From positions 1,070 through 65,069 of the IMG/VR virus record IMGVR_UViG_3300020049_003954: a DNA stretch of 64,000 bases; one strand, written 5' to 3'. The position numbers and the translations under genes were made by a program. The notes beneath the pieces were generated by a model that worked only from the letters and a program-made list of their open reading frames with translations, ran no database searches and was not told the DNA's origin. Shown here in pieces: positions 7,193 to 55,920 of the stretch (the first letter of the stretch is position 1; each line of letters starts with the position of its first letter). The DNA comes from a virus (Duplodnaviria > Caudoviricetes).

Positions 7193-9853
7193 TTGGATAT
7201 CAGAGAGTATCTGGAAGAAAAAGAATGTAAAATAAGAGAAAGAGGCAGTGATCACATTTCCACACATTGTTTCTTTTGTGACGAAGACACAAACAAAGCG
7301 GGAAGACTATACATAAACGTAGATGAATCTAATGAAGAAAAGTATGGCGTCTTCTTCTGTTTCTTGTGCCAAGCTAAAGGTGGAATCAATACTATTAGAG
7401 AGCATTTCGGTGATGCTCCAATCAAGAACGACTATGTATTTACCTCCAATCCAATTGTTGAGGTAGCCGCTAGATACTATCAGGACAAATTACTAGAGAA
7501 CCCAGAAGCATATAAGTATCTCACAGAGAAGCGTGGATTGTTTGATGAAACAATTACTCAGGCTAGAGTGGGTTGGGCTGATGGAGGGCTAGTACATCAT
7601 CTACTCCAAAAAGGATTCACGGCTGAAGATATTCAGTCTACTCGCCTTGTCAATAAATATGGTGAAGATCATTTCAAGAACGAGATTATCTTCCCCTACT
7701 TAGAGCATGGCGTAGCTATCTCCTTAAGAGGTAAAAAGATAGGTGGAATCACTCGCAGCACTCCCGGTCCACTTCCAATCCCCTATGGTATTGATACCTT
7801 GATAGGTGAGGAAACCGTTACTGCTGCTGAGGGTGAGATAGACCAGCTAACACTATGGCAAATGGGCTACCCAGCTATAGGACTCCCAGGGGTTATGACC
7901 TTCAAGGATGAATGGGAAGAGTATCTAGACGAAGCGAAGAGAATTTATATCCTGTTTGATCAGGATAAAGCTGGCAAGGCTGGTGCTGAGAAGTTAGCTT
8001 CACGTCTTGGTCCACGCACTAGAGTTGTTGAGCTTCCTAAAAAGGGAATTGATGTCAACGATTACTACGTTAAGTACGGCAAGGAAAGAGATGACTTTGA
8101 ATACCTTATGCGTAAGTCTAAGGGCGGTCTTCTTGTATCTGTGGAAGAGGCTTATGAACGCTGGTTAGAGGTGGAAGGTAACCCTGATCTTAAGGGACTA
8201 CAGTTAAACATTCCACGTCTAGATGAGGCTATGAGTTTTGGTCTACTCCCAGGTCAGGTTCTTACAATGCTTGCGAGAACTAACTGTCTAGCTGGCGATA
8301 CTGATCTTATAGTTAATCGTGCTGGTAAGAGTTTTCATATAACAATTGAAGAATTAGTATATAAAATTCATGGTGGAAAGTCAAAACTAGGCAAGGTTTG
8401 GGATAAAAATATTCCAACTAAAATTCAGCGTCGAGCAGACGATGGAAGCGTCAGGCTGGTTGAGATTAGTGACGCTTGGTGTTCTGGGGTTAAGGAAGTT
8501 TATAGACTCTCAACAGTATCAGGGAGGGAAATTAAAGCCACTAATCAACATCCCTTCTTAACTGATATTGGATATGTAAAACTATATGATCTTAGCCCAG
8601 GTGATATGGTTTATGTAAATGTTGGCAAAGGTAAGTCTAACGCTTCTGAACGTAAGTATAAAGCTAAATCTGGTTTACATCACCATCCTTATAGAACAAA
8701 AAGAAAGGTTTATCCTGGCAATTTGGCCGAAAAGAGTACGGTTCAATTGCATAGATTAATCGCTGAAGCAGAATTTAATGGTTTAGAATTAGAAGATTTT
8801 CTAGAATATTGCCGTAGCGGTCCTGTTGATAATTTGACTTTTATAAACCCAGCTACTCATGTAGTCCATCATATTGATGAAGATCACACAAATAATGAGT
8901 TATCAAATTTAAGTGTTTTAACTCATGAAGAGCATAATATTATACATGATTATTTTACTAATAATGTATTAGATAGAACTGAACTTGATGAAATTGCTAG
9001 TATTGAATATTTAGGAGAGGAAGTTACTTACGACATTGAGGTTATAGATGATCCACATAATTTTATTGCTAATGAATTTGTGGTCCATAATTCTGGTAAG
9101 ACGGTTATGAGTATTAACTACTTTGAGCGTATGCGTATGCTATATCCAGACATCAAGATTCTTTACATGTCTCTAGAGCAGACTAGAAATGAGTGGTTCG
9201 AAAGAGCCTATCGTATTCATAATTTCTATCACCCAGGCTCTAGTGTTATGGATACTATTAATTTCTGGGGAAACAACTTCCACATCGTAGACAAGAACAG
9301 AATCAACGAGAGTCAGTTAGTTGACTCTATTGAGCAGTTCAGTTACGAGACTGATGGTGTCCCAGACCTTATCTGTATTGATTACCTTGGCTACTATGCC
9401 AAAGGTTTCGGTGGTACTGAGTATGATCAGGTAACAAATGCTATCATGGGTATCAAAGCTATCGCTAAGGAATTCCAGACAGTGATCTATGTTCCTCATC
9501 AGGCGAATCGTTCAGGTGACTTTGGTAAGGAACCCAAGATGGATGAGGGTCGTGGTGGTGGCACAGTTGAAGAGACTTCAGATGTATTCATTACTCTATG
9601 GAATCCAGATCAGGCTAACCAAGATGGTGAAGAGCAGGTAAATCGTGGCGAGGTATTCCAGAGAATTAGAAAGTCACGCCAGGGTGGAGTAGGTGCTTCA
9701 GCTAGATACCAGTTCGCTCCATTAACACTTGCAATGTGCCCCATAGATGATGTATTATATGAGCGGGCACTAGATGAGCGCCAGTACGCAATGGCTGGTG
9801 ACAGTTGGAAGGAAGCCGTATTGAGACATAAGAACAAAGTTACGGAGATATAA
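7193..9853 (+). CDS. Primase-helicase fusion (Zn finger + TOPRIM + DnaB-like) containing an intein
   Basis: CFFC/CFLC Zn finger; TOPRIM EGEID and LFDQD; spliced Walker A ARTN|SGKT; CIDYL; HQANR. Confidence 0.9.
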   Translation: MDIREYLEEKECKIRERGSDHISTHCFFCDEDTNKAGRLYINVDESNEEKYGVFFCFLCQAKGGINTIREHFGDAPIKNDYVFTSNPIVEVAARYYQDKLLENPEAYKYLTEKRGLFDETITQARVGWADGGLVHHLLQKGFTAEDIQSTRLVNKYGEDHFKNEIIFPYLEHGVAISLRGKKIGGITRSTPGPLPIPYGIDTLIGEETVTAAEGEIDQLTLWQMGYPAIGLPGVMTFKDEWEEYLDEAKRIYILFDQDKAGKAGAEKLASRLGPRTRVVELPKKGIDVNDYYVKYGKERDDFEYLMRKSKGGLLVSVEEAYERWLEVEGNPDLKGLQLNIPRLDEAMSFGLLPGQVLTMLARTNCLAGDTDLIVNRAGKSFHITIEELVYKIHGGKSKLGKVWDKNIPTKIQRRADDGSVRLVEISDAWCSGVKEVYRLSTVSGREIKATNQHPFLTDIGYVKLYDLSPGDMVYVNVGKGKSNASERKYKAKSGLHHHPYRTKRKVYPGNLAEKSTVQLHRLIAEAEFNGLELEDFLEYCRSGPVDNLTFINPATHVVHHIDEDHTNNELSNLSVLTHEEHNIIHDYFTNNVLDRTELDEIASIEYLGEEVTYDIEVIDDPHNFIANEFVVHNSGKTVMSINYFERMRMLYPDIKILYMSLEQTRNEWFERAYRIHNFYHPGSSVMDTINFWGNNFHIVDKNRINESQLVDSIEQFSYETDGVPDLICIDYLGYYAKGFGGTEYDQVTNAIMGIKAIAKEFQTVIYVPHQANRSGDFGKEPKMDEGRGGGTVEETSDVFITLWNPDQANQDGEEQVNRGEVFQRIRKSRQGGVGASARYQFAPLTLAMCPIDDVLYERALDERQYAMAGDSWKEAVLRHKNKVTEI
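8285..9091 (+). mobile_element. Intein (269 aa) carrying an HNH endonuclease
   Basis: Begins CLAGDT, ends FVVHN, +1 Ser; HNH core VHHIDEDHTNNELSNL..H. Confidence 0.9.
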
Positions 9854-25260: not shown

Positions 25261-26140
25261 ATTTTTCCTTTAAAGAGTTTGTATAAGTTTCATATGATAT
25301 TGTTGCCATGTATGACTGTTCCACAACAATAACCATATCGAGTAGAGAAGAAGCACGACACTCTAGATATTTCATTCCCTTGATCAATGTTTCAAGGTTG
25401 GAAATTTGTGGTGACGTAGGTTGTTTGTCCGAAGCTTTAAGAGAAGCTAATAATTCATCGAACTCGCTGAGTTTCTTGTTAATCTCAATCTGAAAAGCTT
25501 TGGCAACTAAATCCTGTTGATCCAAAGTATTTACTAGAGGAATAATTCTTAGATCAGATTGACCAAGAACAATACATACATCCTCTAAGTCTTTAGCGAG
25601 AGGGAGATCTTCCTTCTCAATAAAGTAAGTTCCTGAACGAAGCCAGAGAGCATTGAGTTGATCTTCTAAGAAGGTTCTCACAATATTTCTCATAGCTAGA
25701 TGATCAATAAGATTATTGCTATTTAATTCTCCGTCGATGATTGCCATGACTCTCACAAAATCTTCTGTAAGTTCCTCATCGGAATATTCATAGGTCCCTG
25801 TTCTTTTATCGAAGGTAAGAGTTCCAATATCTTCTTCTATATTAAGTCCAGAGCTTTTATTGACCCTGTGTCTAGCAATTTTACGTTCGATAAACTCATT
25901 CGTTTCCTTGGAGGGACGAACATATACCTTACGTTTAGTGACACTAACTTTAGCATGTTCTTCATCATATTTAAAGGTAGCATTTTTACAACCACGCTTA
26001 AATAGATTTGCTTTGGTGGGCGTGCTCGGAACCTGTAGAGGAATATTCTCTTCCTCCACAAGTTCCGTGAGTACGTTTAGATCAAACTGAGCATCGGATG
26101 GTAGACTATGCCAGACAATGTAACCTAGATAATCATTCAT
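25250..26140 (-). CDS. DUF6744-like protein
   Basis: LGYIVWHS..P...LFKRG N-terminus; 296 aa. Confidence 0.55.
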   Translation of the reverse strand: MNDYLGYIVWHSLPSDAQFDLNVLTELVEEENIPLQVPSTPTKANLFKRGCKNATFKYDEEHAKVSVTKRKVYVRPSKETNEFIERKIARHRVNKSSGLNIEEDIGTLTFDKRTGTYEYSDEELTEDFVRVMAIIDGELNSNNLIDHLAMRNIVRTFLEDQLNALWLRSGTYFIEKEDLPLAKDLEDVCIVLGQSDLRIIPLVNTLDQQDLVAKAFQIEINKKLSEFDELLASLKASDKQPTSPQISNLETLIKGMKYLECRASSLLDMVIVVEQSYMATISYETYTNSLKEKYGK

Positions 26141-27617
26141 CTAATACCTCCCATTCTCCTGTTTTGTGGAATGTGTTTTCCTGGTTTGGGTCAGCCCAGA
26201 TATTGCCTGCGTGACCGTGTAGATTCTTGTCAGCATATAACTCATTAAGAAAGTCTTCTACGGCTGACGCTGGCATTGGGTCTTCGGATATATGGAATTC
26301 CTGATGAAGAGTTGGCTCTATCACTTTCTCTTTATAAGAGTCAATGATAGATTGTTTTTTCTTAGCGTTTTCTTCTGTCAGATTCTTAACCTCATCTGAC
26401 CAATCAAGAACGCTAGTGGGACCATCACTCTTCGAAGCCTGAGCTAGAGAGATTCCAACACTGGAAACTCTTTCTTTCTTCTCTGCTTTGTGAACGGTGC
26501 CCTGCCAAATACCAGACACCTCAATGCCATTCTCAATTGCAATGTCAAGATATTCTTTGACCATGTTCTGAACTGGTTCAGAAGCGTGACCGAATAGCAT
26601 ATCAATATCTACAGGGTTGGCAGCGTGAGCGTTGAGAACATAGTCCTTCATTGTGTGGAAGGAGTAACAGTAATCATCATCACGCTCTGCTCTAAAGTTA
26701 GCCCACTCTAGTTTGTTGAGGAAACAGCCACCGTTATGCTCTAGCGTGAACACACGGTCAACGAACAGTTGCTTGTTAATAAATTCTGTGGGGCCGAGTT
26801 CGCCTACCTCACGCTGGTAAAGGATTTTAGCGGCGTTTGCCCAACGCTCGCCACCGTAAGAACTGCCAGGAGTAAATTCCATGAACAGATCAACCATCTG
26901 TAGCAGGGCATCTACACCATGCTGTTCAAAGATGTAGTACCATCTTGTCCATGCACCTTTACGGTAACCTTTGAGGGTTTTGCCGAACGCTTTGTGGTGT
27001 CGTAGTTCTCCACCACAAGCAAGGTGAACGTACTCACGGAATGATTTATCTAACTCATCTACCAGAATATGCATAGCTGTGTCAGCTTTTTCCGAAAGCT
27101 TGGTGAGTTTAGATCTAGGATCTTTCTCAATGAGATTGAGATTGATAGCCTGACGTTCCTTAATCTCTTTCTTGGTTTTCTTTAACTTGATTCCTGCACG
27201 CTCTAACTCTTCGAATGAAGGAAGAGTTAGAGGCTCAAACTGAATGAAGGAATTGTTAATCAAACCGAAGAGAAGGTAGTAGTCCGCAGCAGACTGTGCA
27301 GGGTCAACCTCATCAGGCTTTACATTAGTCCAAAGACTATGCCAAACATAATCTTTGTACGATTCGATAGAAGTACCCTTCTCAACCTCCAAAGCTTTCT
27401 CGATATGAGAAGGGACATTGAATACCCAAGGAGATTCAGATGTAGAATGCTCAGAGAAATCTGAATCTTCTAGTTCGTCATCATCATAATGACCTATATC
27501 ATCATCTTCGTCATCATCAAGATCATATGGATAATCGTCTTCATCATCATCCATATCTTCTTCAAACCATGATATAATTTCATCTAGTGGGATTTCTTCG
27601 TCATCCATTGCTGTCAT
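26133..27617 (-). CDS. Hypothetical protein (494 aa), acidic N-terminus, with ELRH / YGGERW / HNGG motifs
   Basis: Long ORF coupled to the phosphatase gene. Confidence 0.8.
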   Translation of the reverse strand: MTAMDDEEIPLDEIISWFEEDMDDDEDDYPYDLDDDEDDDIGHYDDDELEDSDFSEHSTSESPWVFNVPSHIEKALEVEKGTSIESYKDYVWHSLWTNVKPDEVDPAQSAADYYLLFGLINNSFIQFEPLTLPSFEELERAGIKLKKTKKEIKERQAINLNLIEKDPRSKLTKLSEKADTAMHILVDELDKSFREYVHLACGGELRHHKAFGKTLKGYRKGAWTRWYYIFEQHGVDALLQMVDLFMEFTPGSSYGGERWANAAKILYQREVGELGPTEFINKQLFVDRVFTLEHNGGCFLNKLEWANFRAERDDDYCYSFHTMKDYVLNAHAANPVDIDMLFGHASEPVQNMVKEYLDIAIENGIEVSGIWQGTVHKAEKKERVSSVGISLAQASKSDGPTSVLDWSDEVKNLTEENAKKKQSIIDSYKEKVIEPTLHQEFHISEDPMPASAVEDFLNELYADKNLHGHAGNIWADPNQENTFHKTGEWEVLDE

Positions 27618-28980
27618 CTTCCTTGATTAAATCTTCTGCTTTGGGATAGAATTCTAGATAGAATTTAACACGGTCTGCTTCGTCGTGCCAATCCTTTAAA
27701 GTAATTTGATTGATAGTTGACTTGTTAATGTATTCACTAAAGTCAGAGTCCCACCATTTACATTCGTCCCCTAAACGAAGGCACTCATCGTGCCCGTTGA
27801 GGATCATAGCATAGTGGTCGATAGGTTTGCAAGGGGAATCTTCGGGGTCTGTGACGAGTCTCAGCCCTCCATACATATAGTCATACTTGGCTAAGATATC
27901 TAGACTATTTGATTTTACCCATACCTCTGGTTGAGGGTGTGTAAAGGTACTTAGATCCTGTTTCCAGAAGCTACATGATGTACCCTTGTCTGAACAAATG
28001 GGCCAACCACGGATCATCATTGCATAATGATCGAAGACCTGACAAGCTTTAGTTGTCTTGCCAGTGGAACCATAAGTTTTGGGAACATACACTGGTTCTT
28101 CTGGAACCTCTGTACCATACCAATAACCGGAAGCGTACTCAATGAACCATTCTTGAATGTCTGATTCAATCGCATGAACGCAGTATGAATTCTTTACAAA
28201 GTGGTACGCCTCATTAGGAGTAACTGAACCCTCCTGGCCTAAAAGATATAGACAGGCTAGGATCGTACCAGTTCTACCGTGCCCACCGATACAGCCAATC
28301 TCTACCATCTCGCCATTAAGGATACGTTCGTATGCATCAACGATCTGAGTCAGTGCAATCTCTTTATCCTTGGGCATGTTGTAGTCAGGCCAGTTGATAA
28401 ATTCATTTCGCCACGTCGGACGCCAGGAGTAATCAGCATACAAACCAAAGTCTGGATTGTCAGCCTCTTCGATGACATAGTTAACTGATGAACAGTAGAC
28501 AAAGTAACCATCAGCAATTTCGATTTCGTCGTGCTTGTGGCTACACTTTTTGACAGGCTTGTACGTCTTGGCATCTGGCTGTGTCACTGTTAACTTGCCA
28601 GCAGAATCATAACCCATTTTACCAAGTCCACCACCATAGCCACCGTAGTAACTGTCAGTGTCATCATCGAATAATGATTTGGTACTATATTGCACTTGAC
28701 TTTCCTCCACGCCGTGGTCTTCGTCTACCGTAAAGGTGACATTACAAGCGAAGCAATGATAAATCTTTTCACTTGAATCAGAAGGACAGGTGCATAGGTC
28801 AATGTATTCTCCACACTCAGAGTGAACTATATTATAGTTTCTCTTACACTGTGGACACTGTGCGTGAACGTGTTTAGTATCAAATTCGTAGTCGTCCATC
28901 CATTCGTCATCATCTCCGTAATCATACTGTAGTTCCATAAAATCAATCGCCTCTTTCGGTATCAGTGGTGCAGCCATCAT
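27601..28980 (-). CDS. CX5R protein-tyrosine/dual-specificity-type phosphatase with Zn ribbons and a duplicated Cys/His module
   Basis: EIGCIGGHGRTGT; WPD loop; N-terminal CxxC pairs; two DHYAM..C..C repeats. Confidence 0.8.
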   Translation of the reverse strand: MMAAPLIPKEAIDFMELQYDYGDDDEWMDDYEFDTKHVHAQCPQCKRNYNIVHSECGEYIDLCTCPSDSSEKIYHCFACNVTFTVDEDHGVEESQVQYSTKSLFDDDTDSYYGGYGGGLGKMGYDSAGKLTVTQPDAKTYKPVKKCSHKHDEIEIADGYFVYCSSVNYVIEEADNPDFGLYADYSWRPTWRNEFINWPDYNMPKDKEIALTQIVDAYERILNGEMVEIGCIGGHGRTGTILACLYLLGQEGSVTPNEAYHFVKNSYCVHAIESDIQEWFIEYASGYWYGTEVPEEPVYVPKTYGSTGKTTKACQVFDHYAMMIRGWPICSDKGTSCSFWKQDLSTFTHPQPEVWVKSNSLDILAKYDYMYGGLRLVTDPEDSPCKPIDHYAMILNGHDECLRLGDECKWWDSDFSEYINKSTINQITLKDWHDEADRVKFYLEFYPKAEDLIKEDDSNG

Positions 28981-30479
28981 GCCCACACCTCACCGGATGA
29001 GCCGTTAATCTTAATCCATGCACCTGCGGCGTAAGAAATGTCTTTGTAAGTAAACTCTGTAGCATCCTGGCTAATAACAAGACCCTCTAGTGAGACTACA
29101 CAAGACTTGTCCCAACCTCTAGCTACAACAGCAGCGTGAGAAAGCTTACCACCTAAAGCAGTAAGGATACCAACAGAGTTTTTCATCTGTGTAATATCTT
29201 CTGGGTTAGTCTCCATTGCTACATAGATGAAAGGTGTACCCTCTTCGGCTAGTTCATCAGCCTGCTCGTGAGACAGAGCAATCTGACCAACAACAGTGCC
29301 ATCAGTTGCACCGATACCACTGCCAATGTATTTCAGATTACCTGGGTCACTTGATCCAGCTTCCATCTTGGGTAGGAGAGATAAGAATTTCTCCGTAGCA
29401 GCAACGCTGGAAATAACACCTTCACGAGACATGTCGATGATGCTTCTCACGTTGGCCCGCTGTGATCTTTTAGCTACACGATACTGTAGGAGATATAGTT
29501 TACCTCTCTCAATGGTGAACTCAATATCTAGAATGTCACGCTCGTTCTGAAAGAGTTTACTCATCGCAGCCTGTAACTCTCTAGCTGGCTTAAGTAGTTC
29601 CTCATCCTCAAACATTTTAGCGATAGGAAATACCTTATGAGTACCAGCCACAACGTCTTCACCCTGTGCTTTCTTAAGGTAGTCACCGTAAATACCTTTC
29701 TCACCAGTGTTAGGGTTGTGAGTGAACACAACACCAGTAGCTGATGAGTCAAGGTTGCCAAAAACCATTTGCTGAACAGTCACAGCAGTACCCATCTTAG
29801 GATTGATCTTCTCAATCTTACGATAGGATACAGCCTTCTCGGAGAACCAAGAAGAATACACAGCATTACAGGCTTCTAAAAGCTGGATATTTGGATCGTC
29901 GGGAAACTCTTCGCCAACTTCCTGGCGGTAGATTTCCTCAAAGAAGTTGACAAGAATCTCGTAGACTTCCTCATCGAACTCACCGTAATAGATTTTAGCT
30001 GCGTCATAAATCTCATTGAACAGCTTAGGGTCAACACCCTTGACAGTCACACCGAACATCTGGATAAGACGACGGTAACAATCAAGACCGAACTCTCTTG
30101 TTGCTCCAAGAGACTCAACAAATCTGTTGATATTAGTTTTGGTCAGTCCGATGTTGAGGATCGTATCCATCATACCGGGCATGGAAATAGGGGCACCAGA
30201 ACGAACGGAAACCACTAAAGGTTTACCTTCGTCTAATGTCCATGTAGTGTCAGTGTTGTCAGCTAGGAAACGAATGTTGGACATGAGAGAATGGTGAAAA
30301 TAATCACCGGCTTCGAACTTCTCCCCACGATCAAACTTTTTCTCGAAACAATGGTTAGTAGTACAAACAAAACCTGTTGGTACGTTGAGTCCCATGTTTA
30401 ACATTCTGGAAATGTTGGCAGCCTTGCCGCCAACTAAGTCTTTAGATAGATCTGGTTGTTGTAAAGAAAGTAGTGTCAA
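28977..30479 (-). CDS. PPDK-like dikinase: ATP-grasp and phospho-His domains only, no pyruvate-binding barrel
   Basis: GGKA, VSVRSGA..SMPGMMDT, QQMVFGN, AQGEDVVAG, DIEFTIE, SHAAVVARG; stops at INGSSGEVW (500 aa). Confidence 0.9.
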   Translation of the reverse strand: MTLLSLQQPDLSKDLVGGKAANISRMLNMGLNVPTGFVCTTNHCFEKKFDRGEKFEAGDYFHHSLMSNIRFLADNTDTTWTLDEGKPLVVSVRSGAPISMPGMMDTILNIGLTKTNINRFVESLGATREFGLDCYRRLIQMFGVTVKGVDPKLFNEIYDAAKIYYGEFDEEVYEILVNFFEEIYRQEVGEEFPDDPNIQLLEACNAVYSSWFSEKAVSYRKIEKINPKMGTAVTVQQMVFGNLDSSATGVVFTHNPNTGEKGIYGDYLKKAQGEDVVAGTHKVFPIAKMFEDEELLKPARELQAAMSKLFQNERDILDIEFTIERGKLYLLQYRVAKRSQRANVRSIIDMSREGVISSVAATEKFLSLLPKMEAGSSDPGNLKYIGSGIGATDGTVVGQIALSHEQADELAEEGTPFIYVAMETNPEDITQMKNSVGILTALGGKLSHAAVVARGWDKSCVVSLEGLVISQDATEFTYKDISYAAGAWIKINGSSGEVWA

Positions 30480-30742
30480 CCTTCTTCTCCTTCGTCATCA
30501 TTTGCTATTGATAAGCTAAAGCCTAATGCCATTTCTGACCATGCTTCTTTGTGGTCAGCGCCATTCATCTGAGATAAGAATGCGAACTGTGTAAGTAACT
30601 GACGCATAGCCCAACGGATCACACGTTTTAAATCATCCTCTGTCATGCCAGCATATACAGCTTCTCTGGCATCTTTGTCATCTTCGTACATGGCAGTACC
30701 TAAAGCGAGGACTGTCTGTCGTGCTTCATTTTCTGAAATCAT
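30476..30742 (-). CDS. Hypothetical protein
   Basis: 88 aa, stop overlaps the dikinase start. Confidence 0.65.
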   Translation of the reverse strand: MISENEARQTVLALGTAMYEDDKDAREAVYAGMTEDDLKRVIRWAMRQLLTQFAFLSQMNGADHKEAWSEMALGFSLSIANDDEGEEG

Positions 30743-31367: not shown

Positions 31368-31679
31368 TTAAACTTCGATGAATTTCTCTTTGAATGGAGG
31401 CCAATCAAAGAATGAATTTGGTAACTGTACTTTCATTTTGAAATCAGGGTCGTATCTTTTTCTGATGACTCTAGCGGCTAATTTATAGATCTCTAATTTA
31501 TCGTGATAGCTAGAGGATTCGCATTGAAATTGATTCTTATGAGAATAGCTAGTAAACTCATCTTTATAGCCCCAATAATTAGTTGGGGTTTCAAGAAACT
31601 TACCATCTTTTCTAATCTTGAATCCTTTATATTTATCCTTGCTATCGTTAGGTATGATAAGTACTATCTCATACAACAT
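31368..31679 (-). CDS. Hypothetical protein
   Basis: 103 aa, coupled to the RNA ligase. Confidence 0.6.
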   Translation of the reverse strand: MLYEIVLIIPNDSKDKYKGFKIRKDGKFLETPTNYWGYKDEFTSYSHKNQFQCESSSYHDKLEIYKLAARVIRKRYDPDFKMKVQLPNSFFDWPPFKEKFIEV

Positions 31680-32743
31680 TACTCACTCCTAGGCTTGATC
31701 ATCTTCCAGATGATATCATCGAAGTCCTTGTTATCATACATCCTGAACAGAATCGACTTAAAAGGATTGGACTTAATAGCTAAAGCAAAGTCTTTCTTTG
31801 AGGTCAGGTGTTTTACTTTACCGAACTCTACAATAACCTCATGTTCAATCTCGGAGAATGAGTCATTTAGATCGCCCACGGTCTGCTTCACCACCTGATA
31901 GAACTCATCAGGCACCTCAGCTAATAGCTCTAGGAAATCTTCACCGCTAGATAAAGATTCCCAAACCTTTTTGACGGAGAAGCTATGGATGATACCATGT
32001 AGCCGTACATACTCTGGGTGTTTTACTTTTAGTCTAAAGGATGGCTCGCCATACTTGAACCAAGTGCAAACTACACCTTCACGACCTTCGTATTCATTTG
32101 ATGTAGCGAATCTATATGCATCATCAATAGTATCAAAGCCAGTGTACTCATCAATACGAGTACCGTGCCAGTAGTCCAATGCTTGTAGCGGAATGTCTGC
32201 GCCATTATTATTATCAATAGCTGCGATCAAAACTAGTTCAGCTTTATCACCGTAGTCTACGCAGATTCGATTGTCAGGGTAGATGATTTCTACTAGAGTC
32301 GTTACACCCTCTGGCTGACTATACGCCCAACGATCAGAATAAAGAGCAGGATATTCTTCTTGTAGCCAGTTGGTTGCCCAAATAGCTTGATCTGATTCAA
32401 AAGAACCTCTTGTAGCTACACTCCAATCATTACCATCATGATAAATAATACCAAGTGAACCATCAGCTTTATCGGATACGTTTGGTACACGATCATAAAT
32501 TACTGGATCAGGAATAATCTCTGTATAGTTAAAGATCTTAGGGAATGGTCGAGCAACAATATTGTAGTCCTCATCAAGCACAAGACCCCTGCAAGTTTTG
32601 GTTACAGGGGTCCAGTTACGAGAGTATTGAACTAATGGTGAGTAGTTATAGATGGACAACTTACCATTTACATGTGGCCTCTTCGTTACTAGTCCATCTG
32701 CTACTGCCGCATCTAACTCTTCAATTGTAAATGGTAAGCTCAT
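31679..32743 (-). CDS. T4 Rnl1-like RNA ligase
   Basis: CRGLV, RPFPKIFN, KADGS, TRGSF, EII, EGVV, KVK. Confidence 0.9.
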   Translation of the reverse strand: MSLPFTIEELDAAVADGLVTKRPHVNGKLSIYNYSPLVQYSRNWTPVTKTCRGLVLDEDYNIVARPFPKIFNYTEIIPDPVIYDRVPNVSDKADGSLGIIYHDGNDWSVATRGSFESDQAIWATNWLQEEYPALYSDRWAYSQPEGVTTLVEIIYPDNRICVDYGDKAELVLIAAIDNNNGADIPLQALDYWHGTRIDEYTGFDTIDDAYRFATSNEYEGREGVVCTWFKYGEPSFRLKVKHPEYVRLHGIIHSFSVKKVWESLSSGEDFLELLAEVPDEFYQVVKQTVGDLNDSFSEIEHEVIVEFGKVKHLTSKKDFALAIKSNPFKSILFRMYDNKDFDDIIWKMIKPRSE

Positions 32744-33769: not shown

Positions 33770-34042
33770 TCATACTGCCACCCATTCATAAGTTACTAAC
33801 GTTTTCTTCTCTACCTCTTCAATAGGAGTAGGTTCAAAGTCAATGTCTGCATCTCCCACACCTTCGTAGTAACTAAAGCGATAGAATTTATTTGCTAGGT
33901 CAGAGTTCTCCGTGAACACTACCCACTGATCGAAACCCCAGCGACGTTCTTCACCTATGTAAACATCTTCTCTTCTCCATGAAGTAGAATCTCCACGAGC
34001 AATCTTTAATAGTTCTATAATATCTATGTCTGGCACCATCAT
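33770..34042 (-). CDS. Hypothetical protein
   Basis: 90 aa. Confidence 0.6.
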   Translation of the reverse strand: MMVPDIDIIELLKIARGDSTSWRREDVYIGEERRWGFDQWVVFTENSDLANKFYRFSYYEGVGDADIDFEPTPIEEVEKKTLVTYEWVAV

Positions 34043-34554
34043 AACTCCTGCACGTAATTAATATCTGCCTGGGGTGCCTCCCCTAGCTGGTCTGTAAACT
34101 TGCTGACTTTGGCCCCGTAGAGGTCAACGTAGCGGTCTGGGTCGAAGGCTTCTGAGAGGGTCCAGAAGCGGTCAAAAGCCTCCTGGGGGACCGGCCACGC
34201 TCGCTCCCGGTTGCGCCGCTCTACGAGGCTTCTGGGTGCGTCTGAGACAAGGATGGTCAGGGGGTGTCCCCACTGCCCACAATAAAGTTCTAGATCCTTG
34301 TCTCTGAATTTCTTATTCAGATTAGTGCCGTCCATGTAGACATCTAGACCCCTCTTTAACCGCGCTCTGATAATAGTATTACATAGATCAAAAGCATCTG
34401 GTGTAGCTGCCATATCTTGACGATTATCTGAAACTACTTCACGATAGTAGTCAGAAGAAACCACAGCCCAAGGCGTGATAATGCCGGCCTTAACCATTTC
34501 CTCAGCTACATATGATTTACCCGAACCTGGGCAAGCAACTGGCATGTATATCAT
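34039..34554 (-). CDS. Polynucleotide kinase-like P-loop kinase (AAA_33)
   Basis: CPGSGKS, SSD..R, DGTNL, RN..R. Confidence 0.85.
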   Translation of the reverse strand: MIYMPVACPGSGKSYVAEEMVKAGIITPWAVVSSDYYREVVSDNRQDMAATPDAFDLCNTIIRARLKRGLDVYMDGTNLNKKFRDKDLELYCGQWGHPLTILVSDAPRSLVERRNRERAWPVPQEAFDRFWTLSEAFDPDRYVDLYGAKVSKFTDQLGEAPQADINYVQEL

Positions 34555-54874: not shown

Positions 54875-55207
54875 TTAGTTTCCGAACCACTCGTTCATCA
54901 GAGTTGTATCTGCACAGAGAGCGAAATGCTCATCTTCTTGAACAGCATAACCAACAGGAATGCCATCAATATACCAGACATCTTCCCGATAGTCAATAGT
55001 ATGACCAGCAGAAAGCATATCTGTCAAAGAATCATTCTCTGGTTGGATATTCAGACACTGAGTCGAGGAACCCAATTGGGCATCCTGAATCTTCACAGTG
55101 GTCAATGAGCCACTATCCTCTACAACCTCATTAAGACTGTAGAGTAGACCACCAAGCACCCCTAGAATAACAACAAGAGTACCAATCATGAATTTCGTCA
55201 TTACCAA
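54875..55207 (-). CDS. Membrane-anchored protein
   Basis: N-terminal TM. Confidence 0.6.
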   Translation of the reverse strand: MVMTKFMIGTLVVILGVLGGLLYSLNEVVEDSGSLTTVKIQDAQLGSSTQCLNIQPENDSLTDMLSAGHTIDYREDVWYIDGIPVGYAVQEDEHFALCADTTLMNEWFGN

Positions 55208-55920
55208 CCTTCCTTCAAGCTAGGCTTCAAACGAATGCCGGTAGCACTGAAAAGAAACTCCGTCATCTCACGAGGAACCTGATGACAGAGAAGATCAAGA
55301 GTCATGAGAGTATCACAACTAAACATCTTTGTCACCTCATCCACGATTCGCTCAACAGAAATATCCTGCAACATTTCAAGAGCGAGGGGAGACATCAAAG
55401 CCTTCCGAGTCTGTGCCTCAAAGAAGAAACTCTTTGTGATAAAGAAACGGAAACCACGGAGAGTTCTCAATCCATCTTCACGGATTCGATCCTCAGGATT
55501 ACCAACGAAACGGAGAATTCCGATCTCAAGATCATCAATTCCACAATGGGGATCAATAATCTCACCAGTGATTGCATTGCGAGCAATAGCATTCACAGTA
55601 AAGTCACGACGTGCAAGGTCGTCCAAAATGGTTCCAGGCTCCACGAAATCAGGTCTACGACCATCGGAACTAGGACCATCCTTACGACACATCACAAAGT
55701 CTGCGACCCTTGTACGGTTCTCCAAAGGGTTACCCTTAGGAACCTTTGCACGGATAGTAAAGAACTCAGGGCGCTCTTCAAAGATTTCGAAACCATCTTC
55801 GATAAGCTCATCTCGCATATCTTCAAAGCTAGGAGCTTCTACTGCGAAATCAACATCCTTAGAAGGAATGCCCTTAAATTCATCTCGGAGGCAACCTCCT
55901 ACTTCAAACTTCTGGAACAT
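55201..55920 (-). CDS. cca: Class II tRNA nucleotidyltransferase (CCA-adding), short form
   Basis: VGGCLRD, DVDF, RKD..SDGRRP loop, DLARRDFTVNA, EDGLRTLRGFRF, ERI..E. Confidence 0.9.
   Translation of the reverse strand: MFQKFEVGGCLRDEFKGIPSKDVDFAVEAPSFEDMRDELIEDGFEIFEERPEFFTIRAKVPKGNPLENRTRVADFVMCRKDGPSSDGRRPDFVEPGTILDDLARRDFTVNAIARNAITGEIIDPHCGIDDLEIGILRFVGNPEDRIREDGLRTLRGFRFFITKSFFFEAQTRKALMSPLALEMLQDISVERIVDEVTKMFSCDTLMTLDLLCHQVPREMTEFLFSATGIRLKPSLKEGW

Follow-up and report, generated by a model that had tools for sequence, protein, structure and literature searches.

A phage gene module of a barrel-less PPDK-type dikinase, a cysteine phosphatase and the helical protein family P3

Introduction

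In rifampin phosphotransferase, glucan water dikinase and phosphoenolpyruvate (PEP) synthase, an ATP-grasp domain and a swivelling His domain pass the β-phosphate of ATP to a substrate bound on a family-specific domain. What does such an enzyme phosphorylate when it has no substrate domain? The question is raised by 64,000 nucleotides of phage DNA (Duplodnaviria; Caudoviricetes), positions 1,070 to 65,069 of the IMG/VR record IMGVR_UViG_3300020049_003954, here called the window. A 500-residue homologue of pyruvate phosphate dikinase (PPDK) is encoded in this stretch, followed by a cysteine phosphatase and by a 494-residue protein that we call P3. The source of the window is a 65-kb virus record, about 55% complete, and the close relatives of its phage are contigs of 148–149 kb.

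The original prediction for this locus had described the three genes as a candidate new phosphotransfer system. All the features that it named were found again, and the genes concerned lie on the minus strand. A literature search yielded no characterised phage dikinase–phosphatase system, and a paper on polyvalent proteins does not mention these domains.

Results

The dikinase corresponds to the front half of PPDK

Pfam searches with the 500-residue protein detected PPDK_N (E 7.7e-37) and the PEP-utilizers mobile domain (E 2.9e-15) and no other domain; the PHROG match was phrog_18609, 'kinase' (E 5e-111). In a comparison with solved structures, residues 13–498 aligned with residues 20–507 of the 875-residue Flaveria PPDK chain 5jvn (E 3e-98), and identity to genuine PPDK was about 40% over 490 residues. 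The ATP-site motifs GGK, VRSGA, DIEF and LQxR and the His loop are conserved in this alignment; the loop reads GGKLSH, and the catalytic His448 lies within GGKLSHAAVVARG. PEP synthase and rifampin phosphotransferase were matched weakly (E 1e-11 to 1e-4). Since the alignment ends at PPDK residue 507, the dikinase terminates at the end of the swivelling His domain. Pfam and the PPDK alignment therefore bear out the earlier description of a PPDK homologue that stops where the barrel would start.

An ordinary PPDK activity could in principle be restored by a separately encoded barrel. The barrel domain, PEP-utilizers_C (PF02896), was found neither in the window's record nor in two related viral contigs, G001 and G002 (the second 100% complete), nor in Stenotrophomonas phage DLP3 or Vibrio phage MS03, and no separate barrel subunit is thus encoded in the phage records searched. 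As the C-terminal PEP/pyruvate TIM barrel is absent, the module is not PPDK; and as this is the third, defining domain of PPDK, the published label of a PPDK acting as a glycolytic auxiliary metabolic gene fails.

Longer forms of the dikinase, annotated 'PPDK', occur in Vibrio phages (L003, 3351–5426, and relatives). For one of these, ORF98 of Vibrio phage J26, a published model places a PEP-binding TIM barrel, with PEP docking, in a C-terminal extension of 190 residues (PMC12038007). The extensions of about 190 residues carried by long dikinases of isolated phages gave no Pfam match, including none to PEP-utilizers_C, and when those from three phages were compared with one another, with P3 and with the additions found on the phosphatase, no similarity could be detected.

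The Thr in the GGMTSH loop of PPDK is the site inactivated by PPDK regulatory protein. The Leu noted earlier at this position is indeed read in the sequence, but it is a property of the clade: the residue two before the His is T, L or V among relatives, with Leu or Val only in the window's clade, and the siphophage and small-phage clades retain Thr. Because Thr is kept there, immunity to host regulation, which had been proposed for the module, is not a general property and is not upheld.

The second gene encodes a cysteine phosphatase

Pfam assigned the second protein to PTP-SAK (E 1e-6). Its core, residues 149–293, contains the WPD Asp201 and a P-loop, CIGGHGR, with Cys232 and Arg238; this Asp, Cys and Arg are invariant in 41 homologues and in all related loci. 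The structural model (m6de8acbf99ab) matched VHZ/DUSP23 (4erc_B) with a VIA Z of 16.9 and an rmsd of 2.1 over 133 residues, 5z5b_A at Z 16.3, and Tk-PTP and KAP at Z about 16, and Foldseek gave E 8e-6 for a fold of the dual-specificity phosphatase (DSP) type; these matches concern the core, and the N- and C-terminal parts were barely probed by them. P-loop, general-acid Asp (about 30 residues before the Cys) and DSP fold are all present, and by its sequence and model it is a CX5R phosphatase of the DSP-type protein tyrosine phosphatase (PTP) fold, with its predicted catalytic residues intact.

A motif after the P-loop, VR..YC..AIE..Q, is specific to this phosphatase family. The core is flanked by a Cys-rich N-terminal part and by a duplicated C-terminal Cys/His motif, both with invariant Cys and His residues that probably form zinc sites. 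A gene called 'thymidylate synthase' in phages DLP3 and DLP5 (L001, 12590–13366; DLP3 gp141), together with PHROG phrog_17568, is a second CX5R phosphatase of the module and no homologue of ThyA.

P3 belongs to a large unnamed family

The third protein carries the motifs ELRH, YGGERW and HNGG pointed out previously, and these fall on invariant or near-invariant columns of the family. In family terms the motifs are GGE(L)R(H/Y), YGG..W and FVDR..LEHNGG..NK; they lie in an all-helical core and can be read in the window P3 (P0003) and, in alignments A1 and A2, on columns with little or no variation. Invariant even among distant members are Y196, G203, E204, R206, R219, G256, W259, H294, N295 and K302. 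The AlphaFold model of P3 has a mean pLDDT of 80, with 298 residues at 90 or above, and shows the all-helical core at about residues 55–370 between acidic disordered tails.

No Pfam family matched P3, 46 of its relatives (E up to 0.1) or ten long relatives, and PHROG gave one weak match of unknown function. The model found no known relative either: the best E with Foldseek against the PDB was 0.78 and the best Z with VIA against 48,161 chains was 4.5. Unnamed viral proteins were the only matches in BFVD, and unnamed clusters the only ones in a protein atlas. A search with the family profile collected 3,654 representative clusters (50% identity) at E ≤1e-3, of which 2,364 reached E ≤1e-10. P3 is therefore a large unnamed family with no Pfam model and no structural relative found.

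The invariant polar residues of P3 look, from their conservation, like a phosphate-handling active site. The cores of P3 and of the phosphatase are acidic, with median pI values of 5.4 and 4.7, and half of the collected proteins, mainly relatives of P3, have at least four CxxC motifs. The accessory domains of long P3 and phosphatase relatives gave no Pfam domain that hints at a substrate.

Co-occurrence, layouts and fusions

The 37 related loci collected, a few of them near-duplicates, were drawn from genomes of isolated phages, from contigs of IMG/VR and of metagenomes, and from genome bins. Carriers of the module include isolated Vibrio, Stenotrophomonas, Rhizobium and Rhodobacter phages and many uncultured phages. 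P3 and phosphatase genes are adjacent in 32 of the 37 loci and usually overlap; the other five comprise two loci cut directly after P3, one contig of 3 kb and two cellular loci. Parts of a phage-type dikinase occur in 22 loci. The three genes thus occur together far above chance, as the original prediction required. It is the P3–phosphatase pair that forms the conserved core; some lineages can dispense with the dikinase. Duplications were also seen, with two phosphatases in three loci (L001, L002 and L006) and two P3 genes in one (L024).

The dikinase takes three layouts: whole, split and fused. When split, it consists of stand-alone His-domain genes of 103–146 residues and stand-alone PPDK_N genes of about 250–285 residues. 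One fused form is a protein of 865 residues in the order PPDK_N, His domain, P3 (L012). In another (P0185) the His domain separates an N-terminal segment of P3 from the P3 core; the phosphatase gene follows. P3 thus occupies the place of the barrel in the fusions, and this is the strongest support for P3 as the supplier of the acceptor site. The earlier suggestion that the third protein supplies the substrate site fits such fusions, in which P3 lies directly after or around the swivelling His domain, and P3 may well have this role.

An actinomycete branch of P3

Proteins of about 730 residues from Streptomyces, Micromonospora and other actinomycetes combine an unknown N-terminal part, a P3-like domain (E 1e-36) and a prolyl isomerase of the cyclophilin type. 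At four loci (L034, L035, L038 and L039; Actinomycetota, Streptomyces decoyicus and Micromonospora zamorensis) their gene belongs to a conserved cluster. At the two loci with gene calls (L038 and L039) the cluster includes an open reading frame of 46–53 codons, a protein with a His domain and a PEP barrel, an ABC exporter and a B12-type radical SAM enzyme; a 350-residue unknown protein also belongs to it. Judged by its genes, the cluster looks like one for tailoring a peptide made by the ribosome and modified after translation (RiPP), and the substrate of the actinomycete system is likely a peptide. A literature search found neither a description of this cluster nor a PEP-utilising RiPP enzyme.

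As the P3-like domain here stands beside a protein with a His domain and a PEP barrel, P3 appears to travel with swivelling-His donors charged by ATP or by PEP. Two Arg residues invariant in phage P3 are lost in the actinomycete branch, so that the phage substrate may differ; Tyr196 is lost too. There is no conserved phosphatase partner in this branch, only a weak DSP nearby in one of the four loci.

The genes form part of a longer overlapping block

The translational coupling predicted from dikinase to phosphatase to P3 agrees with the stop/start overlaps, which are present at both junctions (Table 1). The block is longer than originally described, however, and continues into the DUF6744 gene and the gene for a 344-residue protein. 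From 5′ to 3′ on the minus strand its overlaps are TTGA, ATGA, 8 or 17 nt, 8 nt and 11 nt. TTGA joins the stop of the 88-residue protein to the dikinase start; ATGA, read directly in the sequence, joins dikinase stop and phosphatase start; the overlap of phosphatase stop and P3 start, also read directly, is 8 or 17 nt according to the choice of ATG; and the last two are those of P3 with DUF6744 and of DUF6744 with the 344-residue gene. Independent gene calls on an identical metagenome contig gave the same pattern. When its nucleotides were searched against 50,697 phage records, the region matched none of them.

Table 1. Genes of the overlapping block in the window, in the order of transcription
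Feature	Length	Position	Strand	Basis and remarks
Acidic protein	88 aa	30476–30742	−	Open reading frame and translation; clade-specific accessory gene
PPDK-type dikinase without barrel	500 aa	28977–30479	−	Pfam, PHROG, PPDK alignment
Cysteine phosphatase, DSP/PTP fold	461 aa (459 aa from ATG)	27601–28986	−	Pfam, model, invariant residues
P3	494 aa	26133–27617	−	No Pfam family; model; family profile
DUF6744 protein	296 aa	25250–26140	−	Pfam DUF6744, E 2.9e-12; clade-specific accessory gene
Unknown protein	344 aa	24226–25260	−	Partly conserved within clade

Neither the 88-residue nor the 344-residue protein matched Pfam or PHROG. Homologues of the former occupy the same position in four loci (L005, L008, L029 and L030), and the DUF6744 gene does so in these and in L007; partial homologues of the 344-residue protein occur in L005, L008, L009 and L030. 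A protein atlas search with the DUF6744 protein returned DUF6744 clusters only. In one related contig (L007, 12881–15652) a MoxR-type AAA ATPase and a VWA protein are encoded downstream of the module. Two close relatives, L029 (CAZUVD010000006.1, 149 kb) and L030 (73 kb), were binned into Coxiellaceae and Saccharibacteria genome bins; their phage-like gene content makes it probable that these are phage contigs, placed in the wrong bin or together with a host.

Genomic context and clues to the substrate

The module always lies among genes for replication, recombination and repair. Its neighbours in the window are a RuvB-like protein, a ligase, an Rnl1-type RNA ligase and a kinase resembling polynucleotide kinase (PNK); elsewhere they include DNA polymerase I, RecT, PD-(D/E)XK proteins, helicase-primase and Mom. 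The Rnl1-type ligase gene is on the same strand just upstream, and in this clade the module lies 1.2 kb downstream of it. The window also holds a set of RNA-repair-like genes: this ligase (31679–32743), the AAA_33/PNK-like kinase (34039–34554), and a tRNA nucleotidyltransferase and a metallophosphoesterase at 55201–55920 and 18430–19182, all on the minus strand. On the plus strand (7193–9853) an 886-residue primase-helicase has an HNH-endonuclease-like stretch, at about residues 512–596, between its primase and DnaB-like parts, which could be an inserted homing element.

DNA of the carrier phage DLP3 resists 15 of 15 restriction enzymes (PMC7326821), and that of DLP5 resists 32 of 36 (PMC5834331). 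A ThyA-like hydroxymethylase (PF00303) was absent from five carrier records, which include three complete isolate genomes and one complete contig, and so was a TGT gene. The hydroxymethyl-pyrimidine and 7-deazaguanine routes to modified DNA were rejected on this ground. A report of glycosylated 5-hydroxycytosine (PMC13326640) was not used, as the gene numbering and accessions of its 'DLP3' differ from those of vB_SmaS_DLP_3.

Gene context, the RNA ligase and kinase nearby, the CxxC motifs and Cys/His clusters, and the restriction resistance of DLP3 and DLP5 DNA are clues to a nucleic-acid substrate. The fold class of the phosphatase, the cyclophilin fusion, the peptide cluster of actinomycetes and the acidic cores of P3 and the phosphatase are clues to a protein or peptide. 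As acceptors, side chains of proteins or peptides and hydroxyls of nucleic acids or nucleotides seem to us about equally probable, at roughly one third each; small molecules or signals take the remainder. Neither the components nor the long relatives showed a carbohydrate-binding module, which makes a cycle of the starch type unlikely.

Discussion

On balance, and with limited confidence, we favour the view that the module is no PPDK but a dikinase system that is driven by ATP and split, with the acceptor held by P3. As in the first partial reactions of PPDK, the ATP-grasp domain, whose motifs are intact, would charge His448 of the swivelling domain. The phospho-His domain would then dock on P3, and not on a PEP/pyruvate barrel, as gene fusions and gene order suggest, and the phosphoryl group would pass to an acceptor in a pocket formed by the invariant Glu, two Arg, Asp, His, Asn and Lys of P3. 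The phosphatase, with the residues and fold of its class, may hydrolyse a phosphate ester on the same substrate; it might reset a mark, take off a phosphate that had served for activation, or work on another phosphate group of that molecule. The writer/eraser pair of the original prediction is only one possible reading.

Three considerations weigh against a split dikinase system. The complete or near-complete phage genomes G004, G005 and G006 encode P3 and the phosphatase and no PEP-utilizers domain anywhere, so that the dikinase is not obligatory and P3 can work without one from the phage. The P3 fold has no known relative, and a catalytic role for P3 is therefore deduced from conservation alone. 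Finally, if kinase and phosphatase both worked on a single site, the cycle would be futile unless time or specificity kept them apart.

How does such a system compare with those already known? PPDK (EC 2.7.9.1; Clostridium symbiosum 1KBL/1DIK, Flaveria 5JVN) shares the ATP-grasp and the swivelling phospho-His domain, but the phage protein ends after the His domain, with no TIM barrel, and has P3 and a Cys phosphatase as partners. Rifampin phosphotransferase, glucan water dikinase and PEP synthase carry their acceptor domain in the same chain, and that domain is apparently unrelated to P3, although a distant relationship is conceivable: no rifampin-binding or carbohydrate-binding type of Pfam domain was found in P3, and no structural match rose above Z 4.5. 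Compared with these alternative-acceptor dikinases, the phage module has separate genes, a new putative acceptor domain and a DSP phosphatase as a near-constant companion. A PPDK-type dikinase and DSP-fold phosphatases act on one substrate in the plant starch phosphorylation cycle, as glucan water dikinase and SEX4/LSF2; the phage genes differ in being coupled within replication blocks and in the lack of a detectable carbohydrate-binding module. With small atypical DSPs (VHZ/DUSP23, Tk-PTP, KAP, and the baculovirus and PIR1 RNA 5′-phosphatases) the phage phosphatase has in common the fold and the Asp, Cys and Arg, and is set apart by its VR..YC..AIE..Q motif, its Cys-rich termini and a gene obligately beside that of P3.

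Two further systems are functional analogies only. In the sugar phosphotransferase system Enzyme I uses a mobile His domain and EIIB carries a phospho-Cys, and in T4 Pnkp a kinase and a phosphatase are joined and act on two ends of one molecule. The three phage genes include no HPr, EIIA or EIIC and no P-loop kinase or HAD phosphatase, and the folds differ from those of both systems. As for the thymidine hypermodification pathway (hydroxymethylase, 5-hmdU DNA kinase and aGPT-Pplase), its ThyA-like hydroxymethylase is missing from the five carrier records, and in a comparison with Pfam, bearing on membership of P3 in aGPT-Pplase, no family matched P3 or the 46 relatives at E ≤0.1. New relative to known systems are the split genes and the proposed P3 acceptor module; newly seen are the phages without a dikinase, the layout with stand-alone His and ATP-grasp genes, how large the family is, and its branch in actinomycetes.

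Of the competing explanations, the one that survives best, although we think it rather unlikely, is that the P3–phosphatase pair is the real unit and the dikinase only an optional phosphate donor. The pair could be a two-subunit phosphatase, a phospho-Cys phosphotransferase passing phosphate from His to Cys to acceptor (compare Enzyme I to EIIB), or an enzyme for a substrate phosphorylated by something else. The adjacency of P3 and phosphatase, whose genes usually overlap, is tighter than the link of either to the dikinase (32 loci against 22), the pair is found without any His domain in three phages whose genomes are complete or nearly so, and paralogue expansion has affected P3 and the phosphatase and not the dikinase. 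In both fusions found, however, the His domain is joined to P3 and not to the phosphatase; the WPD-type Asp, conserved here, serves hydrolytic PTPs as general acid; and the actinomycete branch does without a conserved phosphatase partner.

A little less probable still is a module that acts on nucleic acid, either in end-healing of the Pnkp kind, with a kinase for the 5′-OH and a phosphatase for the 3′-phosphate of broken RNA or DNA, or in a step of a DNA modification that protects against restriction. End-healing would naturally explain why a kinase and a phosphatase occur together, and the constant replication, recombination and repair context agrees with it, as do the CxxC motifs (at least four in half of the collected proteins) and the invariant Cys/His clusters in the phosphatase of this clade. 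Restriction resistance in DLP3 and DLP5, whose genomes have no ThyA-like or TGT gene, points the same way, but glycosyltransferase genes of these phages could instead be its cause (PMC7326821). The acidity of the P3 and phosphatase cores speaks against such a substrate, as does the lack of a recognised nucleic-acid-binding domain in ten long relatives; no hydroxymethylase is there to supply a base hydroxyl, and a P-loop kinase of the PNK-like kind is already encoded by the window phage.

We regard as improbable a third alternative, in which P3 is no enzyme but a phospho-acceptor switch protein: the dikinase would add the phosphate, the phosphatase would remove it, and the two forms of P3 would act differently on host or phage processes. 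A kinase, a phosphatase and their target in one operon are the usual layout of bacterial partner switching, Tyr196 and His294 are invariant in phage P3, and the fold class of the phosphatase is mainly protein-directed. Yet the invariant Glu, Arg, Asp, His, Asn and Lys over 3,654 clusters look like an active site, the fusions would tether a substrate to its own kinase, Tyr196 is lost in actinomycetes, and P3 occurs without a phage dikinase. Finally, an ordinary PPDK that boosts host glycolysis as an auxiliary metabolic gene, as annotated in several papers and in keeping with the identity to genuine PPDK, is scarcely credible, for the barrel is missing and not encoded elsewhere in the phage records, the extensions of the long forms match no Pfam family and are mutually dissimilar, and the conserved partners are the phosphatase and P3, with no glycolytic genes.

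A bolder and more doubtful generalisation suggests itself. P3 might be a very large enzyme family of new fold and serve swivelling phospho-His domains in general as their acceptor module. In phages, with an ATP-fed donor, the molecule to be phosphorylated would be a macromolecule on which infection depends: the phage's own DNA, for instance, or broken ends of nucleic acid, or a protein of host or phage. Actinomycetes, with a PEP-fed donor and a cyclophilin fused to P3, would use it to tailor a ribosomal peptide. Such a system would be a new biological route of phosphorylation, parallel to the kinases of the P-loop and protein-kinase folds.

The phage 'PPDK' reported as a glycolytic auxiliary metabolic gene is almost certainly not one. 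Identification of the acceptor would define a new enzyme family. The module could explain the heavily modified DNA of Delepquintavirus, or reveal a mechanism of host takeover or repair, and a function for the conserved biosynthetic cluster of actinomycetes would also follow.

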